Shown here in pieces: positions 18,704 through 40,369 of a stretch of DNA of 64,000 nt. The DNA comes from Candidatus Iainarchaeum sp. (lineage in GTDB: Archaea; B1Sed10-29; WALL01): assembly GCA_023129115.1 (NCBI GenBank), contig JAGMCR010000002.1, forward strand, positions 1 through 64,000, given 5' to 3'. Below the pieces are notes generated by a model. It was not told where the DNA came from. It saw only the letters and a list, made by a program, of their open reading frames with translations, and did not search any database. Within the stretch, counting starts at the first letter, position 1; the number at the start of each line of letters is the position of its first letter. Position numbers and translations under genes: made by a program.

Positions 18704-18754
18704 TTTAAACATATGCGTCGTTGGTTATAACATCAATGCCCAGATATTTAAACA
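18704..18754 (+). repeat. 51-bp direct repeat, left copy (partner at 20683-20733)
   Basis: TTTAAACATATGCGTCGTTGGTTATAACATCAAT(G/A)CCCAGATATTTAAACA with one mismatch between copies. Confidence 0.97.
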
Positions 18755-18798
18755 TAGCTTTTTAATGTTTGACGTGGATATGTTCGATAGCTGTTATA

Positions 18799-19005
18799 AT
18801 GAAGTGGTTAAATTACGCGAGGGATATCCTAATCTCCACACTGGGTGGCTTTATAGCAGCCATGTTTTCGGTGGTTTTGTTTTATCCCAATGGAACAGCA
18901 GCCTTACCCTCCTTAGGCAGTATCCTCAACGCAACCGGCGGCATTTATTTTTGGACATTTGTTGTTGTCGTCCTGTTAGGTATTATCTATTGGAAACAAA
19001 AATAA
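18799..19005 (+). CDS. Small two-TM membrane protein
   Basis: 68 aa with two hydrophobic helices, inside the repeat-bounded islet. Confidence 0.55.
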   Translation: MKWLNYARDILISTLGGFIAAMFSVVLFYPNGTAALPSLGSILNATGGIYFWTFVVVVLLGIIYWKQK

Positions 19006-19110
19006 TTACCATTGAACATGCCACGGAAGCGCTAGGGGCTTGGTTGAAGAAGAACAGGTGAGCCTCGGCAAGTCATAGACACAGCCTTTAAATATCCACC
19101 TGGCGAACTA

Positions 19111-19821
19111 ATGTGTATGGTTAAAATCGCTCTCGCTGAACCGGAATTGTTTGTGGTACGGGCTTGTACATCAAAACCCACGTATCCCAATATGCTCCTG
19201 GTTTTTGCTATTAATCATTTTTATCCAGAAGAAAAAGAAGACGAATTCTCCAAAAAACTAATGGGCCTTTATCTTCACGGCTACGCCGAGGACTTCTTTT
19301 TAACCCAATTATCAGAGCTATACAACTTAAGATTCAAAGGAGATAGCGTTAAATTTGATTATTTAACCCTATATCCAACACACGAAAAAAATGGGGAGAA
19401 CAAGAATCTGGAGAATCTCGCGAAAAACTTCTGCAAACTAGTCAACTTGGAGTATCGGCAAATCCTGCGAAGGAATAGGAATATTAAGAAGATGCACGAA
19501 CTTCGTACCTTCAAAGAAAGACTGGAAAACATTCAGGGCTCGGTGGATATACTGGAAGATGTCAAGGGGAAAAATATTCTGCTACTAGATAATCTCACGA
19601 TTACCGGGATATCCTTGATAGATATGGCCAACCTACTAATCCAAAAAGGCGCGAAAAACGTTGTGGGTGTGTGCTTGGGGGTGAGTGCCAAGAATAAGGA
19701 GACAGATTGGATAGATTTAAATAAAACGCTTAAGTATTCTAGAATCAAACAAATCTGCAGATCCCCTTATGTCTCTGAGGAGAAACGGAAGGCATGGAAA
19801 AAGAAGAGTACGCAAGTTTAA
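19111..19821 (+). CDS. ComF-like phosphoribosyltransferase (ShosT-like candidate toxin)
   Basis: ERLENIQGS and the degenerate PRPP loop ILLLDNLTITGISL...GAKNV; overlaps the DprA gene. Confidence 0.8.
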   Translation: MCMVKIALAEPELFVVRACTSKPTYPNMLLVFAINHFYPEEKEDEFSKKLMGLYLHGYAEDFFLTQLSELYNLRFKGDSVKFDYLTLYPTHEKNGENKNLENLAKNFCKLVNLEYRQILRRNRNIKKMHELRTFKERLENIQGSVDILEDVKGKNILLLDNLTITGISLIDMANLLIQKGAKNVVGVCLGVSAKNKETDWIDLNKTLKYSRIKQICRSPYVSEEKRKAWKKKSTQV

Positions 19822-20687
19822 TGGCCCTAAAAAAAATAAACGGCCTAGGGAACACACGGCTTATACAACTAGCTACAGAACTCGGGGGCTGGGAAAAAGT
19901 AATAAAAGTTGATTTCAAGCATCTCGAGAAATTTAGCTTCATCAAACAAAAAACCTTCGAAGAAATCAAAAGTATCTCTGAGAGTGATTTAGACAAAGCC
20001 AGAGCCGATTTTGATTACTGTTCCAATAATAACATAACAGTCATCTCATTTTTTGACGAACGATTTCCTCCTAAATTGAAAGGCATACCAAGCCCCCCGT
20101 CCGCAATATTTGCAAAAGGTAAATTGAGTAATCTAAATAAACCAGCCATATCGTTTGTAGGCTCACGGTCTTCAACAGAAAAAAGTAAAGAGTGGACTTT
20201 TAAGTTCGCTAAAGAATTGGCTGAAAAAGATTACGTTGTAGTGAGCGGTGCAGCGAGGGGTATTGATACTGCTGCACATGCTGGCGCTTTGTCTTCCAAT
20301 GGACGCACCATCGCCGTGCTTGGTTGCGGTCTTGAAAACATTTATCCAAAAGAAAACGAGTCTTTGATTACAGAAATAATAGAAAATGGGCTGGTTGTTT
20401 CAGAATACCCACCCTCAGAAAATGTCACGCGGATTTCGTTACTTGAAAGAAATAGGATTACATCGGGTTTAGGAAATGCTCTTTTATTGGTCACAGCTCT
20501 TGATGGTGGTGGTTCAATGTCACAAGTCAAAAATGCTATTGCTCAAAGAAAACAAATTTTTGTGCCTCCTCCCGGACTTGGGTTAGAACCATCAGTCGGA
20601 GTCTTAAGACTAATAAGGGAGAATAAAGCTTCACAGATAAAAAATGTGGACGAACTACTCAATATTGCTAGTCATCAAACACTTTAA
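19794..20687 (+). CDS. dprA: DprA/Smf ssDNA-binding protein (ShosA-like)
   Basis: VGSR, VVSGAARGIDTAAHAGAL, AVLGCG..IYP.EN, SEYPP and RNRITSGL motifs. Confidence 0.93.
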   Translation: MEKEEYASLMALKKINGLGNTRLIQLATELGGWEKVIKVDFKHLEKFSFIKQKTFEEIKSISESDLDKARADFDYCSNNNITVISFFDERFPPKLKGIPSPPSAIFAKGKLSNLNKPAISFVGSRSSTEKSKEWTFKFAKELAEKDYVVVSGAARGIDTAAHAGALSSNGRTIAVLGCGLENIYPKENESLITEIIENGLVVSEYPPSENVTRISLLERNRITSGLGNALLLVTALDGGGSMSQVKNAIAQRKQIFVPPPGLGLEPSVGVLRLIRENKASQIKNVDELLNIASHQTL

Positions 20688-20733
20688 ACATATGCGTCGT
20701 TGGTTATAACATCAATACCCAGATATTTAAACA
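20683..20733 (+). repeat. 51-bp direct repeat, right copy
   Basis: Matches 18704-18754 and contains the dprA stop codon. Confidence 0.97.
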
Positions 20734-24694: not shown

Positions 24695-24912
24695 GCTGTT
24701 GAAAACACGCCAGTGGTATAAAAATAGGGGGGTGCGCCGTGGGGGCTCGGGAGCTCTAGTTTAGGACTCCGGAATGCACGAAAGGCAGAGCAGCCCAATT
24801 AAGCATATGCCGCAGTGAACACAGCCATTCTCCAACAGAAACAATAAAATAACTTTCTAGTGTAGTAGAAGATAAGAGTATATACCTCCTATTATAATAG
24901 AAAGTTATATAA

Positions 24913-26268
24913 ATGATAAGACATAAAAATAAGACTATGCGATTAGGCATAGGCCCTCTGCATGCTCGATTGGGTGAAGAAGATATTGCAAGGGCTTTGA
25001 AAAAATGGAATCAATGGTGGGTTATTCAAAAAGTTCCAAAAAATAAGTTGGGGATTAACCGCAACACCTACATCAAGGCCCTGAATGAGATGGTGTCGGC
25101 AGAAGAAATCGTGTGTTTGACAGGGGTAAGAAGAAGCGGAAAATCAACTCTGTTGCATCAAACCATCCAATCATTAATTGATGCCGGCACTAGCCCAAAC
25201 AACATTTTGTATGTCAATCTTGATGATCCTGTATTCCCACGCTCTATTGAAGGACTTGGGGATATTTTAGGGAAATATGGAGAACTAAAAAATCCTACTG
25301 GCAAAATCTATGTATTTTTTGATGAGGTGCAATCCATTCCTAACTGGGAAAGTTGGTTAAAATCAAAATATGATCAAAAAGAGAACATCAAATTTTTTGT
25401 GACAGGATCCAATTCTTCTCTACTGTCCAGCAACCTGTCTACTCTCCTCACCGGCAGAATGCTGAAACTCACAGTAATGCCTTTATCATTTAATGAGTTC
25501 TTGAAATTCAACAAAGTTGAGTTCAAGGACCTTGATCTGGACCAATCAAGACTAAAGTACCATCTTAGTAGTTACTTGGGAGAAGGGGGTTTTCCTCGCC
25601 CCGTGCTTGAGAAAGACAAAAATATGAAACAACAGCTTTTGAGAGAATATTATGATGGGATTCTCTTAAGGGATGTCCTAAAGGGAGCCAAAATCAAGTC
25701 GCCATCGAAGTTAATCGATTTAGCCCAGTTCGCTGCAGCCAACATAGGCAATCTACTCAGCTATAATAAAATTGGGGGCGCATTAGGTATATCTGATGAC
25801 TCAGTTAAGGAATATCTCCGTCTTTTAGAGAATTCATTCTTGTTGTCACAGGTAGAATTTTTCTCTTATTCTGTGAAAGAAACTGTGTCCATACAAAAGC
25901 CCAGGAAGAACTATCTTATTGATACAGGGATGAGGAACGCAGCGGGCTTTAGATTTAGCCCCGATAAAGGAAGATTAATGGAAAACCTGGTGTTCTTGGA
26001 ATTAAAGAGGAGAGGGCATGATGTCCATTATTGGAAGGGGCAAAATGAGGTTGACTTTGTGTTCAGGGCCGGCAACAAACTCCAGCTGGTTAATGTATGC
26101 TACAATCTTGGGAAATCAAAGAAAAGAGAATTAAATGGATTAATCGAAGCAATGAAAAAATTCAGGATCAATAACTCGATGATTATAACGTGGAGTACAG
26201 AGGGACAAGAAAAAATAGGCAAGAAAATCATCAATTTCGTTCCCCTGTACAAATGGTTGTTGGAGTAA
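24913..26268 (+). CDS. AAA_14/DUF4143 family ATPase
   Basis: GVRRSGKS, FFDEVQ, VTGSNS, LTGR, GGFP, K.YLIDTG, ENLVF and EVDFV motifs. Confidence 0.92.
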   Translation: MIRHKNKTMRLGIGPLHARLGEEDIARALKKWNQWWVIQKVPKNKLGINRNTYIKALNEMVSAEEIVCLTGVRRSGKSTLLHQTIQSLIDAGTSPNNILYVNLDDPVFPRSIEGLGDILGKYGELKNPTGKIYVFFDEVQSIPNWESWLKSKYDQKENIKFFVTGSNSSLLSSNLSTLLTGRMLKLTVMPLSFNEFLKFNKVEFKDLDLDQSRLKYHLSSYLGEGGFPRPVLEKDKNMKQQLLREYYDGILLRDVLKGAKIKSPSKLIDLAQFAAANIGNLLSYNKIGGALGISDDSVKEYLRLLENSFLLSQVEFFSYSVKETVSIQKPRKNYLIDTGMRNAAGFRFSPDKGRLMENLVFLELKRRGHDVHYWKGQNEVDFVFRAGNKLQLVNVCYNLGKSKKRELNGLIEAMKKFRINNSMIITWSTEGQEKIGKKIINFVPLYKWLLE

Positions 26269-26361
26269 ACCACAAAGGGAGGGACAAGCCCCCCCAATGC
26301 GCTTGTGGGTGCTATAACCATCTAGTTCAGGGCGCCGGAAGGGTTTTAAGGCCTTGTTGGG

Positions 26362-26628
26362 TCATCGGAAGAGCTTTTTGTATATGTTTTTCCTGTGGTC
26401 CACTAGAAGTACTTTGACCACTTTTTTCTTGAATACTACCTCGATTATCGCGCGGTATTCTCCGCCGCGTATTTTCCTAAGGCTGCACCCCCCAAGCGGG
26501 AAAGAATCATGGATTGGGTCATCGGTTAGTTTGCTGGCTTTTAGAACCAACTGTCTTGCCACCTTTTTTGGCAGCCCCCGGAGCTCTTTCCTTGCTTTCT
26601 TGTGCCACTTTACCTTGAAAGGCATCAC
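26362..26628 (-). CDS. RelE/ParE family toxin
   Basis: KARKELRGL...KIRGGEYRAI...VDHRKNIY. Confidence 0.88.
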   Translation of the reverse strand: MMPFKVKWHKKARKELRGLPKKVARQLVLKASKLTDDPIHDSFPLGGCSLRKIRGGEYRAIIEVVFKKKVVKVLLVDHRKNIYKKLFR

Positions 26629-26846
26629 AAACCAAACTCTTTTTCAATCTCTCCCTGCGAGACAAAGTCTTTGCTGCTGCTTCTCCTGACCGCCTCTGCA
26701 AGTATTTCTTCCTTGAGCTCGGGAGCGAACATCTTCCTCAACGCGTCACGCACGACCTCCGACTTATTGGGGTAAACCCCTTTGGACACAGAAGCGTCTA
26801 ACAGGCGGAACAATTCCTTACTCAATCGCACTTGCACCGTTTCCAT
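26625..26846 (-). CDS. Ribbon-helix-helix antitoxin
   Basis: METVQVRL...GVYPNKSEVVRDALR; 4-bp overlap with the toxin gene. Confidence 0.88.
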   Translation of the reverse strand: METVQVRLSKELFRLLDASVSKGVYPNKSEVVRDALRKMFAPELKEEILAEAVRRSSSKDFVSQGEIEKEFGL

Positions 26847-26856
26847 ACAACAACAC

Positions 26857-26880
26857 CTTGTAGTACATGTGTACTACAAG
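26857..26880. promoter_or_regulatory. Palindromic operator between the TATA box and the antitoxin start
   Basis: CTTGTAGTACA-TG-TGTACTACAAG (perfect 11-bp arms), adjacent to TTTATA on the minus strand. Confidence 0.75.
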
Positions 26881-26930
26881 CTATAAATAGGTTTCGGTTC
26901 AGGCCCAGTTAGTTCAGGACGCTCCCCCGG

Positions 26931-27183
26931 TTCTTTGCCGACTGGGCTTTTCTTTCGGGAAAGAAAAGCCTAGTGCGCTCGTGGAAAACAGCTGAAACTC
27001 AGCTGGCACGTTAGGTTTGGGGGCACAAGGCCCCCAGAGACAAGTTGTATTGTTCAAATAGTTTCTTTTGCCGACTGGGATTTTCTTTTCTAAAGAAAAG
27101 CCTAGTGCGCTTGTGGGGAACAGCCCAGACCTGGGCTGGCGAGGTAGGCTTGGAGGGTGCCGGTTGGCACCCCCCCAGAGGCA
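26931..27183 (+). repeat. Two tandem copies of a three-hairpin structured element (family A)
   Basis: Copies at about 26931-27042 and 27063-27183 share TTTGCCGACTGGG...AAAGAAAAGCCTAGTGCGCT, with compensatory changes in hairpins 2 and 3. Confidence 0.85.
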
Positions 27184-27214
27184 TTCAAACGTGGCCATAA
27201 CAGAAAAAGGGGGG

Positions 27215-27287
27215 TGCGCCGTGGGGGATTTGAACCCCCGTTATTGGCTTGGGAAGCCAAGGTCCTGCCAGGCTAGACTAACGGCGC
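27215..27287 (-). tRNA. tRNA-Gly(CCC)
   Basis: GCGCCGT acceptor stem, TTGGC-TT CCC AA-GCCAA anticodon arm and GGGGG TTCAAAT CCCCC T-arm. Confidence 0.97.
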
Positions 27288-27315
27288 ACTGCGAGCGAAG
27301 CGAGCTTTTTACCCA

Positions 27316-31970: not shown

Positions 31971-33158
31971 TCAGCCGAACACGAGCGAAAGGAAAAACAG
32001 GATTATGATGATTATGACTATCAGCGAGAGAACGCCGGCGCCGCCTGCCCCGCCTCCGCCTCCACCGCCACCGCCGCCAAGTTTCCTGGCGCCGAGCTGG
32101 CCCTCTGCAATCATTGCCTCGAACCTGCTCGCGCCTTCTGCCTCGCCCTCTCCCGCGGCGGCAAGTAGCCTCTCGCCCTCGCCCGGCTCGGCAAGGCCTT
32201 CGCCTTCTCCCGCGGCGGCGAGGAGGCCCTCGCCCTCTTCTGGCTGTTCTTCCTCTTCCGCTGGAGTTGGCTCTTCTTCTTCGGGCCTTCTGCGTGGCCT
32301 CTCCGGCTCTTCTTCCGCCCGCTCTCCCGGCCGCCTCCGTGGCGGGCGCGTTGGCTCTTCTTCTCCCGGCCTTCTGCGCCTTCTTGGTGGCCTCTCCTCT
32401 GCTTCTTCTTCTGGCGGCCTTCTCCTCCCCCATTCTTCGTGCCTGTTCCCGGCATCAGTTATGAGTGTCTCCAGCTCCGAGAGTATTCTCTCGCCGTCCC
32501 GCGTGTGGGCTATCATGTACCTTGCGCCGACTTCTTCGTTGAGTGGGCGCGAAAGAGTTACCCCGGTAGGTGTCAGGCCCGCGTCAATAAAGTCCTTCCT
32601 CGTCTTTGCCCACGTCTTAATGTCCCACTTTTTCCGCGTCTCCATAATATTCCGCGTTTCGGTGAATGAGAGGGCCCGGCTGAAGTGGTCTTTCTGTAAA
32701 TCCTGGAGCCTCTCCAGCATGGAGTTGGCTTCCCCGTGGTCTTCGGTCGTGCTCGCGCGGTGGATGAGCCTCTCGACTGCGTTTTCGGCCTCCTGGAACT
32801 TGGCCCCGCTCTGGTTATAGTAGTCCTCCTCCAGCACAACGCGGCCCCTGCGCCTTCTCCCCTGGTGGCCATGCCGCCCCTCGACCACCTTGATGTATGT
32901 TGGCCTTAGGGACTCAATGCCCCTGTCGACGCGGACCTTCTGGGACGCCATCGCCTTCTGGTAGCCCTTGACAGCGGCCTTCCTCTGTTTTCTCGTGTAG
33001 CCCAGCGCCTTCATGAGGCTTTTCCGGTCCTTCCACTTGGGCTTGTAGGTCTTCTTGATGCCCTTTGCCTCAATCTTTTTCTGCTTTTTGTACCTTACTT
33101 CCTGAAGCTCGTAAATTGTCTTCACTTTCTTCTTGAAGAGCTCCCGAATCCTTGGCAT
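31971..33158 (-). CDS. Hypothetical tail-anchored protein with R/E/P low-complexity repeats
   Basis: Basic N-terminus MPRI..., RPPRRRRPGEEE and LLAAAGEGE repeats, poly-Gly, C-terminal TM helix. Confidence 0.7.
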   Translation of the reverse strand: MPRIRELFKKKVKTIYELQEVRYKKQKKIEAKGIKKTYKPKWKDRKSLMKALGYTRKQRKAAVKGYQKAMASQKVRVDRGIESLRPTYIKVVEGRHGHQGRRRRGRVVLEEDYYNQSGAKFQEAENAVERLIHRASTTEDHGEANSMLERLQDLQKDHFSRALSFTETRNIMETRKKWDIKTWAKTRKDFIDAGLTPTGVTLSRPLNEEVGARYMIAHTRDGERILSELETLITDAGNRHEEWGRRRPPEEEAEERPPRRRRRPGEEEPTRPPRRRPGERAEEEPERPRRRPEEEEPTPAEEEEQPEEGEGLLAAAGEGEGLAEPGEGERLLAAAGEGEAEGASRFEAMIAEGQLGARKLGGGGGGGGGGAGGAGVLSLIVIIIIILFFLSLVFG

Positions 33159-33255
33159 TCAAACACTGCCGGCAACCCGTTGTTGCAATTATGTTTTTTG
33201 GTGTTTTTAAGTATTCATTGCGGTGGCTGGCGCATTGCACTCATTCATCTCAATC

Positions 33256-34950
33256 TCACGGGCGGTTAATCACCGTGTTCAGGAGGTCGTACATGCCCTG
33301 GAGCGCCGTCTGGTTCCCGTCCAGCGCGTCCCTCTTGAGGTCCGCGTACTGGCCCCTCTCGGCAGTGTCCATGGTATAGCTGGCGCTTATTTCATCCATC
33401 TTGGCGATGTTCTGGCTCACCCGGTCCAGCCCCCTCGTGAGGTTCCTCGTCAGGTCGCCAATGTTCTTCTTGGCCCCGTCCAGTTCTTTTTGGTGCTTGA
33501 GCTTCTTGTCCTCCACCGTGTTGAGCGTGTCCTTCAGGTCGGCGATTGTGTCCCTGTGCGCGTTCTGCAGCTCCGGGCTCCTCGCCATCATGGCGTCGAG
33601 GTTGCTCACGACCTTCTGGTAGTGCCCGACAGCATCGTTGAGCCCTTCCCTGGAAATGTCCTTGTGGCTGCTGAACGCAGTGAGCTGGTCCATCCCCTCC
33701 TTCAGGGTGGCCAGCGCGGCATCCACGGACATCTCGTACCCCTTCCTGCCAGGAGCGCCCGGCGCAGGCAGCTTTTTCTGTATCTGCCTGATGGCCTTGT
33801 TCGCCTTCACTGCATTGTTGTGCGTCCTGCGGACCTGCCTGGCGGACTCGGCCAGGGTATGCGAGATAAGTGTCGCGGCGCCCCTAATGTTCTCCAGCTC
33901 TGCGGTCATTGCCTCGTTCTGCCTCTGGTTGTGCCTGTAAGTCTTGTGGTACCCAATCCTGCCGCCGGACTGCGACACAGTGTCCAGGAAGTCAATGAGG
34001 TTGTCGGCGCTCCGCTCCACCTTCTGAACGTGGAGGCCGGCGCGCTGGTTCATGGTCGAGCGCATCGTGTGGTAGTTCTGCATGGTCTTGATTATGTCGC
34101 GCCGCATCTCCGGCCCAAGCCGCTTTATGCTGCCGTCCTTTTCCTTGAACAAGCCGTTCAAAAGCTCAAGCGTGCCGCCCCGCTGCGCGGCCTCGTTGAG
34201 CGTGAAGTCCTTGTACTCCTCCAGCGCCTCAACGTGCTCGTCGAGCAGCGACTTCGCGTCGTAAATGTTTTCGTCGATTATCTTGATTTGGTGGCTCAGC
34301 ATCCTCACCCGGTCTGCCAGCTCGAGCCCCCTCTCGCCGGTCTGCGTCGACTTGCGCCCGCGCAAGACCTTTCTCTGCTGCGTGAGGTCCGTCCGCAGGG
34401 CCTTTTGGTCCCGCATGTAATTCTTTACCGACGCCATGTTCCTGACGTTGTTCTGGAACGAGGCGATGTTCGCCAAGTGCTGCGCGATGCCCTGGAAAGC
34501 ACCCGAGTCCATTTTCGCGATGGTCCGCAGCTGAACCTTTGTGCCATTAATGGACTGTGCCGTGTACGGGCTCGGCGCCTCGTCAGTCGCCTTCCTCTCT
34601 GTCATGAACTCAAGCAGCTTGTGGTTCTTCACCAGCTTGGCGACCTTCTGGTCAATCTTTTTCTCTTGCTTCTGGTACTCCGCTTTGTTCACGACGTACT
34701 GCCTGTAATTCTTGAGGCCGCCTTTCTTGAAGAAAGAAACGATTCTGAAGCGGTCCGGCTTTTTGACCACGTCCGTGGGGAGCCACTCCCTTGCGCCAGG
34801 CACCAGCACCAATGGCTCTGCCCCCGAAGCCACCATCATTTTATTGGTCATGGTGTGGATGTTTTCCATCTCTGGCAGGAGGCCATGCTTTCTCCTGTGC
34901 CTCTCTGCGCGGCCTTCCAAGCTGAACATTCGTTTTAGGATACGGGGCAT
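33256..34950 (-). CDS. Hypothetical long coiled-coil protein
   Basis: 564 aa with AGGTG RBS, MPRI N-terminus and heptad-rich sequence. Confidence 0.75.
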   Translation of the reverse strand: MPRILKRMFSLEGRAERHRRKHGLLPEMENIHTMTNKMMVASGAEPLVLVPGAREWLPTDVVKKPDRFRIVSFFKKGGLKNYRQYVVNKAEYQKQEKKIDQKVAKLVKNHKLLEFMTERKATDEAPSPYTAQSINGTKVQLRTIAKMDSGAFQGIAQHLANIASFQNNVRNMASVKNYMRDQKALRTDLTQQRKVLRGRKSTQTGERGLELADRVRMLSHQIKIIDENIYDAKSLLDEHVEALEEYKDFTLNEAAQRGGTLELLNGLFKEKDGSIKRLGPEMRRDIIKTMQNYHTMRSTMNQRAGLHVQKVERSADNLIDFLDTVSQSGGRIGYHKTYRHNQRQNEAMTAELENIRGAATLISHTLAESARQVRRTHNNAVKANKAIRQIQKKLPAPGAPGRKGYEMSVDAALATLKEGMDQLTAFSSHKDISREGLNDAVGHYQKVVSNLDAMMARSPELQNAHRDTIADLKDTLNTVEDKKLKHQKELDGAKKNIGDLTRNLTRGLDRVSQNIAKMDEISASYTMDTAERGQYADLKRDALDGNQTALQGMYDLLNTVINRP

Positions 34951-35101
34951 ATCAACACCTTGTAACTACTGTGCAGTGACATTATGTCCGCAATTATTAT
35001 TAAACCTTGCCATACCCATGGACGTATTGGCGATTTAAAAGGGTTTCGGTGCCCTGGCGGGCATAATGCTTAATAAGGCGCCCGTGGGTAACAATGGCTT
35101 G

Positions 35102-36181
35102 ATGAAGAGCAACTTCAAGATATTCAACGTCATGGGCATAGACATTGAGCTCCACATATCGTTCATCCTGTTCGTGCTGCTCTTCCTGATTCTTGACGTG
35201 AGCTTCCTCGTGATTTTATTGGTGCTCTTCGCCTCAATCACGCTCCACGAGCTCTCCCACTCCATAATCGGCAAATTGAACGGCATCAACGTCAAGAAAA
35301 TCGTGCTCCTGCCAATCGGCGGCATGGCCGCGATGGACGAGGTGCAAATCAAGCCGTATTCCGAGTTCAAGATGGCGATTGCAGGCCCCCTGTTCAACTT
35401 TTTATTGTGCACCTTGATTGCGCTGGCCACCCAGCTCTTCGGCCTTCCGTTCCTGCTGGGGTGGGCGGACTGGAACGCGGCGGTGGGCGGCGCCATCACT
35501 GTCCCGCTCGCGACCACCCTGTGGTCGAGCACGTTCTGGCTGAACTGGCTGCTGGGCACTTTCAACCTGTTCGTGCCCGCTATTCCCCTGGACGGCGGCC
35601 GCGTCTTCCGCTCCGCACTGGCGATGGTGACGGACTACGTGAACGCGACCAGAATCGCGACCACGGTCTCGACCGTAATCACTTTTTTCCTGTTCATCTA
35701 CGCCTTGTTCACGTACAACATACTCTTGTTGGTCATCTCTATCTTCGTCTACCTTGGCGCGGTCTCGGAATTAGAATACGCCTTGTCCAACAAATTATTG
35801 GCGCACTTCCCACTGAAGCGCATCGTGCGCGCGAACTATTTAGTCCTGAAGCCAGCCACCAAATTGGACAAGGCGATTGAGGAAATGATTAAGTCGCGGT
35901 CGCTGGTGGTGTTCACCACAATCGGCAAGCACATGGAACTGGTGAGCCTCTACGACATCCGGCACGTCCCGAAGTCGAAGTGGAAGAACACGAGCCTAAA
36001 GGAAATCGCGAACAGGGTGCGCGCCGCGGAAGTCACGGACTCGGTGACCGCAGTAATGCACTCAATGATGCGCAACGGGCTCGAGGCAATGCCCGTAATC
36101 AGCGAAGAAGAACTCGCGGGAGTCGTCTTCCGCGACGACATTAACCGAGTTTTCGAGATACTGAAAGTGAGTAATCCTTGA
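35102..36181 (+). CDS. Site-2 protease (M50) with CBS domains
   Basis: HELSH, AGPLFN and NLFVPAIPLDGGR motifs; C-terminal CBS pair. Confidence 0.93.
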   Translation: MKSNFKIFNVMGIDIELHISFILFVLLFLILDVSFLVILLVLFASITLHELSHSIIGKLNGINVKKIVLLPIGGMAAMDEVQIKPYSEFKMAIAGPLFNFLLCTLIALATQLFGLPFLLGWADWNAAVGGAITVPLATTLWSSTFWLNWLLGTFNLFVPAIPLDGGRVFRSALAMVTDYVNATRIATTVSTVITFFLFIYALFTYNILLLVISIFVYLGAVSELEYALSNKLLAHFPLKRIVRANYLVLKPATKLDKAIEEMIKSRSLVVFTTIGKHMELVSLYDIRHVPKSKWKNTSLKEIANRVRAAEVTDSVTAVMHSMMRNGLEAMPVISEEELAGVVFRDDINRVFEILKVSNP

Positions 36182-36228
36182 GCAATGAGTCCAAGTGCTT
36201 CTTGATTAATGGCGCGTAGTGCTTTCCC

Positions 36229-36477
36229 TCACTGTCCGTCTTTGTGGTACAAGTCAAGGAAGACTATCGTGTCCTGGCTTTTGAGGCATAGGCAGGACAG
36301 CTTGAAGGGCGCAATGTAAACTTCCCCCGTGTTTTTTCGTGAGAAGCGCATTGGCTTTCCAACACTGGGGTCCCGCACAATCCTGGCGACCTGTTTTTTC
36401 ACCTTTTCTTTCAGGGCGTTGTCCCTTATCTTCTTGGCCCGTTTTTCAAAAACAGAGTCAGACCCAACAGTCACCAT
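36229..36477 (-). CDS. RelE/ParE family toxin (copy 1)
   Basis: KKQVARIVRDP.VGKPM...EVYIAPF.L...LDLYHKD. Confidence 0.8.
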   Translation of the reverse strand: MVTVGSDSVFEKRAKKIRDNALKEKVKKQVARIVRDPSVGKPMRFSRKNTGEVYIAPFKLSCLCLKSQDTIVFLDLYHKDGQ

Positions 36478-36740
36478 TTTTCAAGCTCTTTCAAAAACTC
36501 TTCGCCACTCACTTTTTTGAAGCGGCCTTTTTCGTAGCGCTTGAGCGCTTCTTCCGTGCGCTCGGCGAAGCGCAGGTCTTCTCCTATGTTCTCGCCGAAG
36601 TCGCTAACGCTCTTGAGAATGAACTTGTCCCCGCTCCTGATGACGACGAACTTCTCCCCCTCCCTGAAGCCCGCGCGCATGTCGCTGGGGATAACAATCT
36701 GGCCCTTGGAACTCATCTGGGTAACGCTAATATCAGGCAT
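36471..36740 (-). CDS. AbrB/MazE family antitoxin (copy 1)
   Basis: MSSKGQIVIPSDMR motif. Confidence 0.9.
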   Translation of the reverse strand: MPDISVTQMSSKGQIVIPSDMRAGFREGEKFVVIRSGDKFILKSVSDFGENIGEDLRFAERTEEALKRYEKGRFKKVSGEEFLKELEKW

Positions 36741-36801
36741 GAGGCAAGATATGTCTTACCTCATATACAAAGTTTTCTTTTCCAAAGAAAAACTGGAGCG
36801 C

Positions 36802-37209
36802 TTATTCTTGCTGTGACGGGTCTTTGAGCTGCTCCAGCACGCTCCGGACTTGCGGCAGTCCCTGCAGATTGTGCAACCTGTCCACGAAATCCTGTTTGAG
36901 TATGCCACCGCCCTCACCAATTAATGTTACCAAGTAATTCAAACAGTACTTAGAACTAGTCTTCAAGAGCTTGTACACTTTATCCTTGTTTTCTGTATAG
37001 TCCTGATCGCCCAGATAGTTTTCCTCGTAATGCTTGCTGCTTGCAGTGGAGATCTCATCCATCAAGTCGCATAGCTCCTGCGCTTCTTTAAGGTCGATAT
37101 GCGTCCTGATTTCCTTGCTGTGGATGTAAACCGGCTTCGTGAATTTCGCGAAATTAGTAATGTCTTTCCTCAGCTGCTCTTCGTTGCCATGTCTTATTTT
37201 GAGACCCAT
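36802..37209 (-). CDS. Hypothetical protein in a single-gene cassette
   Basis: 135-aa ORF lying between two GAGCGCT sites. Confidence 0.65.
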   Translation of the reverse strand: MGLKIRHGNEEQLRKDITNFAKFTKPVYIHSKEIRTHIDLKEAQELCDLMDEISTASSKHYEENYLGDQDYTENKDKVYKLLKTSSKYCLNYLVTLIGEGGGILKQDFVDRLHNLQGLPQVRSVLEQLKDPSQQE

Positions 37210-37436
37210 ACATGGCTTTAGGGGCTGTGAGAATAAACAAGGATTGGAGCGCTAGGGGCAAACCAGTATACGGAGTTGACTTTTCGACTTTGAAGTCGAT
37301 TTACCAGCCTATTTCATAAGGGGGCAAGGCAGGGGCGGGTAGCACCAAACAGGCCCATGATTGGTTTTTCGGCCAATTGATTGGTTTTTGGCGTTATAGG
37401 CAACCTTTATATATTATACATGTTATGTATAATGCC

Positions 37437-38066
37437 ATGATTAAGCTGACCGAGAAGAGGCAGGGCATAGTACTGTGGATTCTGGAGAACAGGGGCAAGC
37501 AGTGGTCTATCCACGAGCTTTGCACGAAGTTTGGCGGCCTGACGTACCCGAGCACTTATGACTTTGTCAACCAGCTTTTGGGGGCAGGGTATTTGATGAA
37601 GACCGAGGCCCGGGAGTTCACGGCAATGAATGCCCACGCACTGGTGCAGCAGCTGGCATACACGTTTCCATTAAAGGCCAAGGAGAAAAAGTGCTTCTTT
37701 GTGGTGGGGGGCATGGCAGACAAGATAAAGGTGCTCAAGAGCATCAAATTGGATTATTCGCTTACTGCGTTTGCTGCTGGCGAAGTGCTCCACCCCTATG
37801 TAAAGACAGAAAAAGTCCACGCCTATGCCCGAAAAAAAGACATTGGAAAATGGGGGGAGGAACTGGCCAGGAAAGGGGCCAGGCCTGCTTTTGAGGACGA
37901 GGCGAACCTGTTCCTGCTTCCAGTCCAAGAAGATTACTACTTCAACTTGTCCAGGAACATTCACGGCTTCAGGATAGCGCCGCTGGGCCTCGTTCTGGCT
38001 GACCTGGTTTCGATTGGGGGCCTTGGGGAAGAGCAGGCAAAGATGATTGAAGGGGCAGTGGAATGA
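37437..38066 (+). CDS. AbiEi-like type IV antitoxin/regulator (wHTH)
   Basis: N-terminal wHTH; YSLTAFAAG, VHAY and C-terminal LADL...GEEQA; ATGA-coupled to the NTase gene. Confidence 0.72.
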   Translation: MIKLTEKRQGIVLWILENRGKQWSIHELCTKFGGLTYPSTYDFVNQLLGAGYLMKTEAREFTAMNAHALVQQLAYTFPLKAKEKKCFFVVGGMADKIKVLKSIKLDYSLTAFAAGEVLHPYVKTEKVHAYARKKDIGKWGEELARKGARPAFEDEANLFLLPVQEDYYFNLSRNIHGFRIAPLGLVLADLVSIGGLGEEQAKMIEGAVE

Positions 38067-38776
38067 TCGACGGGATTATGGCGGAGTACTCAAACAAGTG
38101 CCTGGCAGAGCTGTTCAGGCACGTGAAGCAAAAAAGCAGTATTGGCCTCATGGGCGGCTGGGCAGTCCACTACCTCTTGAAAGAAAAGGGGGTTGAGCAC
38201 ATTGGCTCTAGGGACATCGACATTTTCTTTGACCCGGAGAAGGTATCGTTTAAGAAAATCCGGGAACTGATTGAGGGGGAGGGGTTCAGGCCGCACTCGA
38301 CTTTCAGGTGGGCAAAGTTTGTCCACAGGCTTACTGGCAAGGAGATGAATAGTGCAGAGGCAACCAAAGTCCCGCAGTATGACTTGTGTGTTGTTTATGT
38401 TGATGTTGCAGCCCCACGGCACGTCGACAAAAGAGTGATGGACTTGCCTTTGTTGGAAAAAGTGTTTGAAGGGGAATCAAAATGGATTAAAGTGAATGGC
38501 ACCAAAGTCCTGGTCCCAAGCGAGAAAATAATGGCTGAGATGAAGCTGGATTCCACTGGAGAGCGGGGGGACCGGTTCAAGAAGTCCAAGGACATTGCTG
38601 ACCTGTTCATGCTGCTTTACAGCGAGCCCGGGCTGCTGGAGGCCGCCGACAAAAAATTGAGGAGAAAATTCAAGTTGGACTTAGGCGATTTTGGGACTTC
38701 TGGCAATCTAGCTGACGCTGCCAACATGTTGGGGGTGCCAGTAAGCGTAATACTGCGCGTCTTGGACAGGCTTTAG
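38063..38776 (+). CDS. AbiEii-like nucleotidyltransferase toxin
   Basis: LMGGWAV, GSRDIDI, MKL and KDIADL motifs. Confidence 0.82.
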   Translation: MIDGIMAEYSNKCLAELFRHVKQKSSIGLMGGWAVHYLLKEKGVEHIGSRDIDIFFDPEKVSFKKIRELIEGEGFRPHSTFRWAKFVHRLTGKEMNSAEATKVPQYDLCVVYVDVAAPRHVDKRVMDLPLLEKVFEGESKWIKVNGTKVLVPSEKIMAEMKLDSTGERGDRFKKSKDIADLFMLLYSEPGLLEAADKKLRRKFKLDLGDFGTSGNLADAANMLGVPVSVILRVLDRL

Positions 38777-38803
38777 TTGGAACGGCTTGGTCAGCATTTT
38801 CCC

Positions 38804-39052
38804 TCACTGTCCGTCTTTGTGGTACAAGTCAAGGAAGACTATCGTGTCCTGGCTTTTGAGGCATAGGCAGGACAGCCTGAAGGGCGCAATGTAAACTTCT
38901 CTCGTGTTTTTTCGTGAGAAGCGCATTGGCTCCCCGATTGTGGGGTCCCGCACAATCCTGGCGACCTGTTTTTTCACCTTTTCTTTCAGGGCGTTGTCCC
39001 TTATCTTCTTGGCCCGTTTTTTAAAAACAGAGTCAGACCCAACAGTCACCAT
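38804..39052 (-). CDS. RelE/ParE family toxin (copy 2)
   Basis: Near-identical to 36229-36477. Confidence 0.8.
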   Translation of the reverse strand: MVTVGSDSVFKKRAKKIRDNALKEKVKKQVARIVRDPTIGEPMRFSRKNTREVYIAPFRLSCLCLKSQDTIVFLDLYHKDGQ

Positions 39053-39315
39053 TTTTCAAGCTCTTTCAAAAACTCTCCGCCACTCACTTTTTTGAAGCGG
39101 CCTTTTTCGTAGCGCTTGAGCGCTTCTTCCGTGCGCTCGGCGAAGCGCAGGTCTTCTCCTATGTTCTCGCCGAAGTCGCTAACGCTCTTGAGAATGAACT
39201 TGTCCCCGCTCCTGATGACGACGAACTTCTCCCCCTCCCTGAAGCCCGCGCGCATGTCGCTGGGGATAACAATCTGGCCCTTCGAACTCATTCGGGTAAC
39301 GCTAATATCAGGCAT
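39046..39315 (-). CDS. AbrB/MazE family antitoxin (copy 2)
   Basis: Near-identical to 36471-36740. Confidence 0.9.
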   Translation of the reverse strand: MPDISVTRMSSKGQIVIPSDMRAGFREGEKFVVIRSGDKFILKSVSDFGENIGEDLRFAERTEEALKRYEKGRFKKVSGGEFLKELEKW

Positions 39316-39416
39316 GAGGCAAGATATGTCTTACCTCGTATACAAAGTTTTCTTTTCCAAAGAAGGGGTCGAGCGCTGGAGGCAAGCGTTATTAAAACGG
39401 TTTAGACCGCCGGTTG

Positions 39417-39689
39417 TCAAAAAAATTGGTTGTACCACTTTTCGTAGTCTTTGTGTTTTCCAACGAAGTAGAATCTTACTGTTTTGTTTAGCTCGAATAT
39501 TCTGTAAACAATTCTGTGTTGTCCTGTTTCGTTCACGAAGAATCTGGCTCCTTTTTTGAGGTGCCTTTTGCGCGGGTGTTCAAGAATATTTTTGATTTTC
39601 TTGGCAATCCGTTCTTTTGTTTGATTATCTAGTTTTCGGAAGTATTTCGGCCAGTCTTGATCGAATCTTTCTGTGTACATGACACTCAT
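39417..39689 (-). CDS. RelE/ParE family toxin
   Basis: YFRKLDNQTKERIAKKI...HRIVYRI...FYFVGKHKDY. Confidence 0.85.
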   Translation of the reverse strand: MSVMYTERFDQDWPKYFRKLDNQTKERIAKKIKNILEHPRKRHLKKGARFFVNETGQHRIVYRIFELNKTVRFYFVGKHKDYEKWYNQFF

Positions 39690-39928
39690 TTCAAGTGTTT
39701 TACATATGGCCCAAGCGCTTCTTCAGCAGTCAATAGTTTTCTTTTTCCTTGTTTTATTTTTTTATCGATTCTATCGAGTTTTCTGGCGACTAGTCCTTCT
39801 TCATTGGCATGGCTTTCCCCGAAATTTATTATAGCTAATCTAATTGCTTCTGACAATGTGTTTGCATAGCCTTCCTCAACCATATCCTCCAAAATTTGCT
39901 TTGTCCTTCCTCTTAAAATAACATTCAT
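39686..39928 (-). CDS. Ribbon-helix-helix antitoxin
   Basis: MVEEGYANTLSEAIRLAI; ATGA overlap with the toxin gene. Confidence 0.82.
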   Translation of the reverse strand: MNVILRGRTKQILEDMVEEGYANTLSEAIRLAIINFGESHANEEGLVARKLDRIDKKIKQGKRKLLTAEEALGPYVKHLK

Positions 39929-39958
39929 TACAGGCCACCAACCATTTGATGTGTGTAT

Positions 39959-39995
39959 TATGTATCGTTTATGGTTTAAATATGTATCGTTTATG
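39959..39995. promoter_or_regulatory. 15-bp direct repeats flanking a TATA box (putative antitoxin operator)
   Basis: TATGTATCGTTTATG at 39959 and 39981, around TTTAAA. Confidence 0.65.
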
Positions 39996-40015
39996 AATAA
40001 AAGCGCTAGGGGCAG

Positions 40016-40150
40016 TGTCATAACGCCTGAAACTCAGGCGGCACGTTAGACGAGGGAGGCGCAAGGCCTCCCGGCGGCATTTTCCATCGACGCTTTTCTA
40101 CCGAGCAGCCGCTGAGCAGGCAAGCGAAGTGGCTGTAACAGAAAAAGGGT
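40016..40150 (+). repeat. Structured element, family A (partial copy), at the tRNA-Ser 3' flank
   Basis: CGCCTGA-AAC-TCAGGCG GCACGTTAG GGGAGGC-GCAAG-GCCTCCC ... GTGGC..TAACAGAAAAAGGG, matching 26989-27040 and 27191-27211. Confidence 0.8.
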
Positions 40151-40154
40151 CGAG

Positions 40155-40239
40155 CGCTAGGGGCAGGATTTGAACCTGCACGGGCCGAAGCCCACCGGCT
40201 CTCAAGGCCGGCGCGTTAACCGGATTCCGCCACCCTAGC
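40155..40239 (-). tRNA. tRNA-Ser(TGA)
   Basis: GCTAGGG acceptor stem, CCGGC-CT TGA GA-GCCGG anticodon arm, long variable arm and G discriminator. Confidence 0.97.
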
Positions 40240-40369
40240 AGCGTCTTGGGGGGAGCGCAGCTCCCCCCGCTACCCTTTCGGGAATCGCAATTCCCTTATT
40301 TCTGGCGATTTCCGAAATAAGGCGATACGAAATCGCCGAAATGGGAAGCACCCCCCCTCAGTAAAACTG
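40240..40369 (-). repeat. Structured element, family B, abutting the tRNA-Ser 5' end
   Basis: The minus strand reads TTTTACTGAGGGGGGGTGCTTCCCA...GCGGGGGGAGCTGCGCTCCCCCCAAGACGCT, with several hairpins. Confidence 0.75.

Follow-up and report, generated by a model that had tools for sequence, protein, structure and literature searches.

A stack of small integrase-less toxin-antitoxin and Abi-like modules bounded by copies of a tRNA-Ser 3' end in a Candidatus Iainarchaeum genome

Organisation of the array

The window analysed here, a stretch of 64,000 nucleotides (nt), comprises positions 1 to 64,000 of contig C12 (JAGMCR010000002.1) of Candidatus Iainarchaeum sp., an archaeal metagenome-assembled genome (MAG) designated G000, with 1,247,405 bases in 19 contigs and 88.6% completeness. 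Between a peptidase M50 gene and the gene for tRNA-Ser(UGA) it carries a compact array of toxin-antitoxin and Abi-like modules, punctuated by copies of the 3' end of this tRNA (Table 1). On balance, the evidence tips slightly towards an origin of the array by stepwise insertion of integrase-less mini-elements at a displaced tRNA-Ser end, with an integrase acting in trans. From left to right, the M50 gene is followed by a pair of AbrB antitoxin and RelE/ParE-like toxin genes (copy 1), an 8-nt copy of the tRNA end, an ORFan of 135 amino acids (aa), a 14-nt copy, AbiEi-like and AbiEii-like genes, a second copy of the AbrB-RelE-like pair, an 18-nt copy, a ParE toxin gene with that of an 81-aa partner, another 14-nt copy, a hairpin mosaic of 138 nt and, finally, tRNA-Ser. 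The AbiEi-like and AbiEii-like pair lies on the strand opposite to that of the neighbouring modules.

The AbrB antitoxin matched PF04014 (MazE_antitoxin) with 24.3-24.6 bits, just under the cut-off of 24.7. Its gene overlaps by 7 nt with that of the RelE/ParE-like toxin, which scored 22.7-25.4 bits against PF15781, under the cut-off of 28; a homologue of this toxin in the genome G009 exceeded the PF05016 cut-off of 23 with 28.0 bits. The 90-aa toxin of cassette D also matched PF05016 above the cut-off (35.7 bits). Its 81-aa partner had no match in the family library or PDB, and the ribbon-helix-helix (RHH) label that it carried in an earlier note on this DNA is backed by no search; tandem 22-nt repeats are situated upstream of this cassette. 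The AbiEi-like protein reached 16.9 bits with AbiEi_2 (E 0.0086, cut-off 21) and the AbiEii-like protein 17.3 bits (E 0.0047, cut-off 22.5), with no match for the pair in PADLOC or PDB; the AbiEi homologue in the genome G014 scored above the cut-off (33.8 bits). For the 135-aa ORFan there was no match in Pfam, NCBIfam or PADLOC, and one other protein (67% identity) was found among the matches listed from 5.8 billion sequences.

The modules are heterogeneous in G+C (GC) content, with values of 0.36 for the ParE pair, 0.46 for the ORFan and approximately 0.50 for the rest, in comparison to 0.52-0.59 for the contigs. A TATA box and a GTAAGA-n-TCTTAC palindrome precede the AbrB gene and are kept throughout its homologues, and the homology of the AbiE unit starts at its promoter, which agrees with the proposal of the earlier note that these operons bring their own promoter or operator. 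The same note had described the array as lacking an integrase; indeed, no recombinase open reading frame (ORF) was detected with Pfam in 36182-40001, nor were virus-gene, plasmid-gene or integrase fragments found there.

The two AbrB-RelE copies (cassettes A and C2) are 97.4% identical over 567 nt. Reads were represented by Logan contigs of three runs of one study (X1, X2 and X3), a type of contig from which rare variants are dropped. The array was covered in all three runs, with some parts left uncovered by X2 and X3. Neither a joint across cassettes nor a circular junction appeared among these contigs, a result that carries no information on excision. Unitigs of X1 bridge 36733-38827 and 39308-40053, and the X1 depth was 37.7 over the duplicated part versus approximately 20 elsewhere. 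X1 may be the source sample of the MAG; with this qualification, the unitigs across the junctions and the doubled depth over the duplication argue that the array is not an artefact of assembly. A contig of run X2 (38582-39413), with the AbrB-RelE copy beside AbiE, shows 11 differences from the window in the stretch 38877-39077. These fall where the two AbrB-RelE copies diverge, and the letters compared are those of copy 1, a finding indicative of gene conversion or of a strain variant.

Table 1. Positions of the array components and of related features in the window
Feature	Position	Strand	Remarks
Solitary exact 12-mer copy of tRNA-Ser end	19028-19039	+	inside ShosT/ShosA islet, 72 nt upstream of the pair
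Peptidase M50 + CBS gene	35066-36181	+	conserved chromosomal left flank; Pfam PF02163, PF00571
J5, candidate degenerate site copy	36193-36222	+	between M50 stop codon and RelE copy 1
Cassette A: AbrB-type antitoxin (36471-36740) and RelE/ParE-like toxin (36229-36477), copy 1	36223-36789	-	
J4, weak site copy	36795-36802	+	8-mer GGAGCGCT; abuts ORFan stop codon
Cassette B: 135-aa ORFan	36802-37209	-	GC 0.46
J3, site copy	37247-37260	+	exact 14-mer of tRNA-Ser 3' end; +2893 downstream of tRNA
Cassette C1: AbiEi-like (37437-38066) and AbiEii-like nucleotidyltransferase (38063-38776)	37395-38776	+	own promoter
Cassette C2: AbrB (39046-39315) and RelE/ParE-like (38804-39052), copy 2	38798-39364	-	
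J2, site copy	39366-39383	+	tRNA end and trailer, 16/18 positions; trailer TCGACCC as directly after tRNA
Cassette D: 81-aa putative antitoxin (39686-39931) and ParE/RelE toxin (39417-39689)	39417-39931	-	GC 0.36
J1, distal site copy	40002-40015	+	exact 14-mer of tRNA-Ser 3' end; present in G002, abutting M50 stop codon there
Hairpin mosaic ("structured element" of the earlier note)	40016-40153	-	genome-wide repeat modules, no Rfam family
tRNA-Ser(UGA), anchor	40154-40239	-	ARAGORN and Rfam

Copies of the tRNA-Ser 3' end

The recurrence of the tRNA-Ser 3' end reported in the earlier note was reproduced, with two exact 14-mers (J1 and J3) and one copy matching at 16 of 18 positions (J2). All copies in the array share one orientation, are located between ORFs and sit at boundaries of modules, as had been described. 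The copy proposed near 36795 (J4) is present beside the ORFan stop codon, but it is only 8 nt long: approximately 0.1 occurrences of such an 8-mer are expected by chance in 4 kb on both strands, and taken alone it is not beyond chance. Its position relative to the duplicated AbrB-RelE module is homologous to that of J2. Three further features had not been remarked upon, namely the exact copy at 19028, the 567-nt duplication and the site J5, which aligns with the right half of the ~45-nt repeat unit of the genomes G006 and G009 (alignment columns 90-118); the sequence is suggestive of a degenerate site copy beside the M50 stop codon.

The motif is not common in the genome. The exact 12-mer AGCGCTAGGGGC occurs four times in the window and six times in the 1,247,405 bases, two of the six being the tRNA-Ser(UGA) and tRNA-Ser(CGA) genes themselves, versus none for a reversed control. 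With up to two mismatches allowed, seven occurrences were found compared with 6.67 expected from shuffles, i.e. no enrichment; it is the long copies, exact or nearly so, that provide the signal. In viral contigs, nine matches to the tRNA-end 15-mer were seen, none of them within an ARAGORN tRNA gene and none after a T-loop; they were therefore taken as chance matches.

The two tRNA-Ser genes with identical 3' ends were also observed to possess a common 5' leader with a G-rich hairpin (window 40240-40300; G000:C4:39250-39303), and pieces of window 40248-40357 are found again beside other tRNAs.

The same locus in related genomes

All genomes used for comparison were MAGs. Homologues of the M50 protein are encoded next to tRNA-Ser in G002 (90% aa identity) and G001 (69%), both of the same genus as G000, in G004 (55%) and on a metagenome contig, L125 (95% aa identity over residues 188-371). 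In G002, the distal copy comes immediately after the M50 stop codon and leads into a ~150-nt hairpin element and then tRNA-Ser; the 17-nt repeats are 172 nt apart and the entire 3.8-kb interval 36182-40001 is absent. In L125, a Peptidase_S51 gene lies between M50 and tRNA-Ser, which follows directly, with neither the hairpin element nor a second copy; no S51 homologue was found in G000. In all three (G000, G002 and L125), homology stops at the M50 stop codon, and their differing contents reveal at least three states of the M50/tRNA-Ser interval among close relatives. The alignment across relatives proposed in the earlier note thus identifies the block as an insertion, with the M50 stop codon and the tRNA-end copy as its outer breakpoints. 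The empty-site evidence at tRNA-Ser(UGA) concerns these outer boundaries only, and single-cassette steps were seen only in the pair G006 and G009 (see below). The copy at J1, which belongs to an older, widespread class, predates the toxin-antitoxin array, since it is present in G002.

In G001 and G004 the tRNA runs in the opposite direction and has no second copy, so that the orientation of the tRNA beside M50 differs between G000/G002 and G001/G004. In G004 (G004:C24:36145-36282, locus L044) the tRNA-Ser beside M50, pointing away from it, apparently has an intron of ~46 nt. A pattern scan of metagenomes for the distal copy plus hairpin gave 0 matches.

Occurrence of the modules in other archaea

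A DNA search with the array in 40 relatives produced a patchy picture, in which each part had its own set of matches: the AbiE part in G014 only, the AbrB-RelE part in G003, G006, G009 and G024 only (70-80%) and the ParE piece in G007. The same-genus genomes G001 and G002 had no DNA match to the array. In G009 and G024, members of other families, the AbrB protein retains 79% identity, versus just 53-55% for M50 within the family.

The AbiE pair is 71% identical in nucleotides to G014:C16:14044-15415, from the promoter through the stop codon, and the unit in G014 is flanked by an 18-nt direct repeat corresponding to the 3' end of an MCM ORF. As this repeat is unrelated to that in our array, it derives from the target and not from the cassette. 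In G009, an AbrB-RelE pair is located between two tRNA-Ser-like repeats of ~20 nt; G006 has four repeats beside the same host gene, with an AbiEii pair, a 64-aa ORF and an AbrB-RelE pair in the intervals. The tRNA-Ser-like repeats are unique to the array locus in G006 and occur in one other place in G009. The two arrays therefore hold different cassettes at the repeats of one host locus, as expected from the earlier note, if its sites are used for gain or loss of cassettes. In G003, the AbrB-RelE pair resides behind tRNA-Ser(GCT), after a tRNA-Ser-like 3' fragment. Neither the ParE pair of G007 nor the AbrB-RelE pair of G024 had meaningful flanking repeats.

On a broader scale, relatives of AbrB were found at 24 GTDB loci (DPANN lineages, anaerobic methanotrophic archaea (ANME) of group ANME-2, Methanosarcinales, Methanophagales and Syntrophoarchaeum), and none in viral contigs. 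Flanking repeats were inspected at 22 of the 24 loci; exact ones were seen at three (17, 40 and 54 nt) and at L092 (= G009; 11 nt exact). Altogether, single occurrences in other archaea, often with direct repeats of their own, support the separate mobility of the modules put forward in the earlier note.

These occurrences bear on the main rival to the favoured reading, namely that the array is a leftover of larger integrated plasmids or viruses, of which deletion spared only addictive toxin-antitoxin genes, Abi genes and att scars, or else a piece of an array that moved in one step. Archaeal elements are known to lose the integrase gene after integration and to integrate in tandem, according to the parts of PMC8371274 and PMC6563490 that were available. 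The array has no integrase, the block of AbiE and AbrB-RelE copy 2 is devoid of an internal site, and the array is missing as a whole from G002 and L125, with single steps undocumented in this lineage. Nevertheless, we regard such an origin as rather unlikely: the same minimal promoter-to-stop units, with repeats tight around them, are seen in other genomes, which is not expected from independent decay, the modules differ strongly in GC, and 36182-40001 is free of virus, plasmid or integrase gene fragments.

Hairpins and tRNA-end copies across the genome

The "structured element" next to tRNA-Ser, counted as a module in the earlier note, was not borne out as a cassette, but proved to be a hairpin-repeat mosaic whose modules match many loci in G000 (BLAST), mostly near tRNAs, the ACGTGCC-hairpin module alone having 17 copies, and the empty site of G002 has a hairpin element at the same place with a different middle part. 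Rfam models detected tRNAs only over 35-42 kb.

The presence of tail copies is likewise not special to tRNA-Ser(UGA): it is a genome-wide phenomenon, most developed behind tRNA-Thr. A search of the 6 kb downstream of each of the 38 tRNAs for its last 14 nt (up to two mismatches) gave 21 matches, distributed over 15 tRNAs, whereas in the controls the 3' probe was found once upstream and 5' probes four and three times. A second copy of the tRNA's own 3' end is situated 65-296 nt downstream at 10 of the 38 tRNAs, usually right after a conserved hairpin module. Outside tRNA genes, 14-mers of tRNA 3' ends (up to one mismatch) numbered 89, versus 17 for 5' ends, a count in which isoacceptors with a common end enter twice. 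For tRNA-Val(TAC), ribosomal genes lie between the tRNA and its copy at +2490, which is probably due to chance. In the window, the same hairpin was also noticed beside target-specific repeats at 26900-27212.

Such copies could point to a transposon-like insertion with long target-site duplication, made by a casposon-like or other enzyme aimed at tRNA 3' ends. This would fit repeats that are target-derived and mostly 13-20 nt long, together with the second copies within 300 nt of 10 of the 38 tRNAs; in the available portion of PMC6563490, casposons are described as making target-site duplications and inserting in tandem. However, there is no Cas1 in the genome (88.6% complete), the tRNA-Ser cassettes have no terminal inverted repeats and the length of the repeats is inconstant, and we consider this mechanism very improbable.

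Recombinases and the tRNA-Thr array

A single protein with a PF00589 domain is encoded in G000 (C12:78360-79529), 38 kb from the tRNA-Ser array on the same contig. It has 389 aa with a C-terminal zinc ribbon, and the best NCBIfam model is that of archaeal XerA (131 bits, below the cut-off of 220). This Xer-like integrase is patchy in its distribution (13 of 40 relatives). Its gene directly follows a 25-nt copy of the 3' end of tRNA-Thr(CGT); the scan for tyrosine recombinases suggested by the earlier note thus ended in a different array, behind tRNA-Thr and not tRNA-Ser. No Cas1 (PF01867: 0), SSV-type integrase or serine recombinase was detected in G000.

The tRNA-Thr(CGT) array extends over ~28 kb outside the window (G000:C12:74872-104110; loci L045 and L126). 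Its 14-mer (up to two mismatches) is present in 16 copies including the tRNA, all on the + strand, from C12:74932 to 104097, and the copies bound segments of 0.15-5.5 kb. Their cargo includes, besides unknowns, peptidases, a DUF4143 ATPase, an AbiEi/AbiEii pair and the integrase, which is accompanied by a subtilase. The tRNA-Thr copies are adjoined by imperfect inverted-repeat ends of two families, one of which bounds the integrase element, a 1.3-kb element with only an ATPase, and an element reduced to the integrase promoter and the first 21 codons of the gene. At the far end, past the last copy, a GMP-synthase-like gene shows only 45-48% identity to same-genus homologues. The process imagined in the earlier note for tRNA-Ser therefore has a clear model in the same genome, at another tRNA.

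The likeness to an integron drawn in that note did not extend to attC-like sites or an IntI. A true integron, or a cluster of attC sites lacking an integron integrase (CALIN), would match cassettes of 0.45-2.1 kb with toxin-antitoxin content and a single site orientation. Archaeal integrons have been reported in MAGs including Nanoarchaeota, and are mostly CALINs in which toxin-antitoxin cassettes are common (PMC9668308, as far as its accessible parts go). The sites in our array, on the contrary, are tRNA-derived, and nine junction regions (three from G000, four from G006 and two from G009) folded as DNA no better than shuffles, with z from -1.99 to +1.29, i.e. they are not attC-like. No IntI was found: the sole tyrosine recombinase had 46.8 bits with the integron-integrase model TIGR02249, for which the cut-off is 265. 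Besides, the cassettes have promoters of their own, and an integron origin is scarcely credible.

Among the genomes compared with G000, PF00589 had no match in G002, G003, G006 and G014 and only a sub-threshold one in G009 (completeness 84-92%). As there is no match above threshold in G003, G006, G009 and G014, these are genomes with repeat-flanked cassettes in which a tyrosine recombinase is not detectable. One may also think of a history with no dedicated recombinase at all, where tRNA-end copies and short repeats served as substrates for homologous or microhomology recombination and unequal crossing-over, segments were duplicated, deleted and captured, and the hot spot is simply permissive DNA beside tRNA genes. 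The 97.4% identity of the AbrB-RelE copies, one of which carries the variants of the other in X2, is in line with this, as are the very variable length of the flanking repeats (11 to 54+ nt) and the four of five genomes tested that are without a PF00589 match. Against it stand the strictly uniform orientation of the copies at module boundaries and the integrase-type architecture of the tRNA-Thr array in the same genome. Moreover, repeats of 14 nt are short for efficient homologous recombination. We judge this history distinctly unlikely.

How the array may have formed

Under the favoured reading, stepwise insertion with an integrase in trans, the M50/tRNA-Ser(UGA) interval would be an insertion hot spot at which very small integrase-less modules were stacked, each consisting of a promoter with one operon or a single gene: the AbrB-RelE pair (twice), the ORFan, the AbiE-like pair and the ParE pair. 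The target would have been the displaced 3'-end copy that is now J1, then beside the M50 stop codon, and not the tRNA gene proper. Each insertion would have left a new copy of the target, and for this reason copies of the tRNA end in the same orientation would punctuate the array. We infer that the modules passed through a circular form and were recombined site-specifically by a tyrosine integrase provided in trans, possibly from an autonomous relative now lost or unbinned, or from an extrachromosomal element. By analogy, the tRNA-Thr array, with one Xer-like integrase element and integrase-less elements having its inverted-repeat ends, may serve as the model. The toxin-antitoxin content would aid the persistence of the modules, and the two 97%-identical AbrB-RelE copies may have resulted from re-insertion or unequal crossing-over. 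With no junction copy inside it, the block of AbiE and AbrB-RelE copy 2 would be a composite. Of the corresponding proposal in the earlier note, a trans-acting recombinase inserting cassettes at the tRNA att core, insertion and separate mobility of the modules have gained support, whereas a recombinase for tRNA-Ser was not found.

Several observations weigh against this reading. No recombinase specific for tRNA-Ser was found in the array or in the 88.6%-complete genome, and the absence of above-threshold PF00589 matches from the five genomes mentioned above adds to this. By BLAST, inverted-repeat ends of the kind that marks the tRNA-Thr elements were not found at the array junctions. A junction copy is missing between AbiEii and RelE copy 2, J4 comprises just 8 nt, and the copy beside M50 is degenerate. 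With lengths of 11 to 54+ nt, the flanking repeats are variable and locus-specific, which fits many att sites and also integrase-free mechanisms, and 18 of the 22 GTDB loci inspected have no flanking repeat of at least 17 nt. Finally, another array could have been the source of the entire block in a single transfer.

A more general idea goes further: in these small archaea, defence and toxin-antitoxin operons would themselves be the mobile unit, 0.6-2 kb from promoter to stop, with target-derived repeats of 14-54 nt, stacked preferentially at displaced tRNA 3' ends by an enzyme encoded outside the cassette, in several hosts with no detectable tyrosine recombinase. It would amount to integron-like capture of cassettes without attC or IntI. 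We put this forward as a speculation that is unlikely to hold.

Relation to known systems and significance

The array looks like the ssrA islands of Dehalococcoides or the accretion of cis-mobilizable elements (CIMEs) and not like an integron, i.e. like a known process in a miniature, recombinase-less form. In the accretion-mobilization of streptococcal CIMEs, non-autonomous att-flanked elements are arranged in tandem and depend on an integrase encoded elsewhere. CIMEs are derived from known integrative and conjugative elements (ICEs) with a known integrase, whereas no parent element is known for our array. Casposons produce target duplications of 14-15 bp and use tRNA targets; the direct repeats of ~14 nt at tRNA 3' ends and the tandem insertion are shared with the array, which, unlike casposons, has no Cas1, PolB or terminal inverted repeats.

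Among described systems, the ssrA islands come closest. As presented in the available parts of PMC3146451, these are bacterial islands of ~12 kb with metabolic cargo and a serine recombinase, placed in tandem downstream of a small RNA gene and bounded by that gene and ~20-nt repeats of its 3' end; an integration module is found in 16 of 31, and for the others cis-mobilization and addition by accretion were proposed. To the extent covered by these parts, the tRNA-Ser array is similar in being tandem, bounded by repeats of an RNA-gene 3' end and without its own recombinase, but it differs in the archaeal host, in modules of 0.45-2.1 kb and in toxin-antitoxin and Abi cargo, and the sole candidate enzyme in the genome is an Xer-like tyrosine recombinase at another tRNA. 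Archaeal elements integrate into 3' parts of tRNA genes and 3' ends of protein genes, form arrays by re-use of a site and may lose the integrase after integration (PMC6563490 and PMC8371274, consulted in part); in those portions, the tandem elements are whole proviruses, plasmids and casposons of several kb or more, whereas the units here are single operons. Small cassettes rich in toxin-antitoxin genes, often with no integrase nearby, are a likeness to integrons and CALINs (available sections of PMC9668308). Unlike integrons, the array has no attC hairpins, IntI, attI or Pc, and it is distinct from integron cassettes, which carry their own attC, because its repeats are target-derived and differ by locus.

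What is unusual is the combination of single-operon units, defence and addiction content, many affected tRNAs in 1.25 Mb, and several cassette-holding genomes with no detectable recombinase. A literature search of partial coverage returned no account of operon-sized, tRNA-end-flanked cassettes in archaea. If the modules truly move singly, no smaller class of site-specific integrative elements would have been described in archaea, and host-dependent reduced genomes would have a simple route for exchanging genes for defence and addiction with neighbours; the AbrB antitoxin has relatives in ANME, Methanosarcinales and several DPANN lineages. G000 provides a natural test bed, as its 28-kb tRNA-Thr array combines one integrase with many integrase-less elements that have the same ends.

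Other small islets and neighbouring genes

The solitary exact copy of the tRNA-Ser end at 19028 lies within a 1.93-kb islet (window 18704-20733, GC 0.40) that encodes a ShosT/ShosA defence pair (PADLOC, 45.5 and 207.7 bits). The islet is flanked by direct repeats of 51 nt (18704-18754 and 20683-20733), which are 98% identical and are found nowhere else in the genome. In the comparison with G002, synteny breaks at ~20.8-21.4 kb, and no empty site could be aligned. Another islet at window 24726-27288 (GC 0.43) is bounded on one side by tRNA-Gly(CCC) and on the other by 20 nt copied from the 3' end of that tRNA; it contains a 111-aa ORF and the gene for an ATPase of the AAA_14/DUF4143 type (PADLOC candidate PDC-S01, 396.8 bits).

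Elsewhere in G000, tRNA-Ser(GCT) is followed by copies of its own end at +163, +2781 and +4087 (G000:C5:9151-13330, L047), between which genes for an archaeal ATPase (DUF234), a 2-thiouracil desulfurase-like protein, a 133-aa ORF and a Fic/DOC protein are located. Four TnpB-like (PF07282) ORFs of 331-626 aa are present on G000:C3 and G000:C13 (loci L048-L051). Two large ORFs without a family match (395 and 564 aa) occupy window 31971-34950, and the 395-aa protein is rich in Glu, Pro and Arg, of low complexity and has a hydrophobic C-terminal tail.

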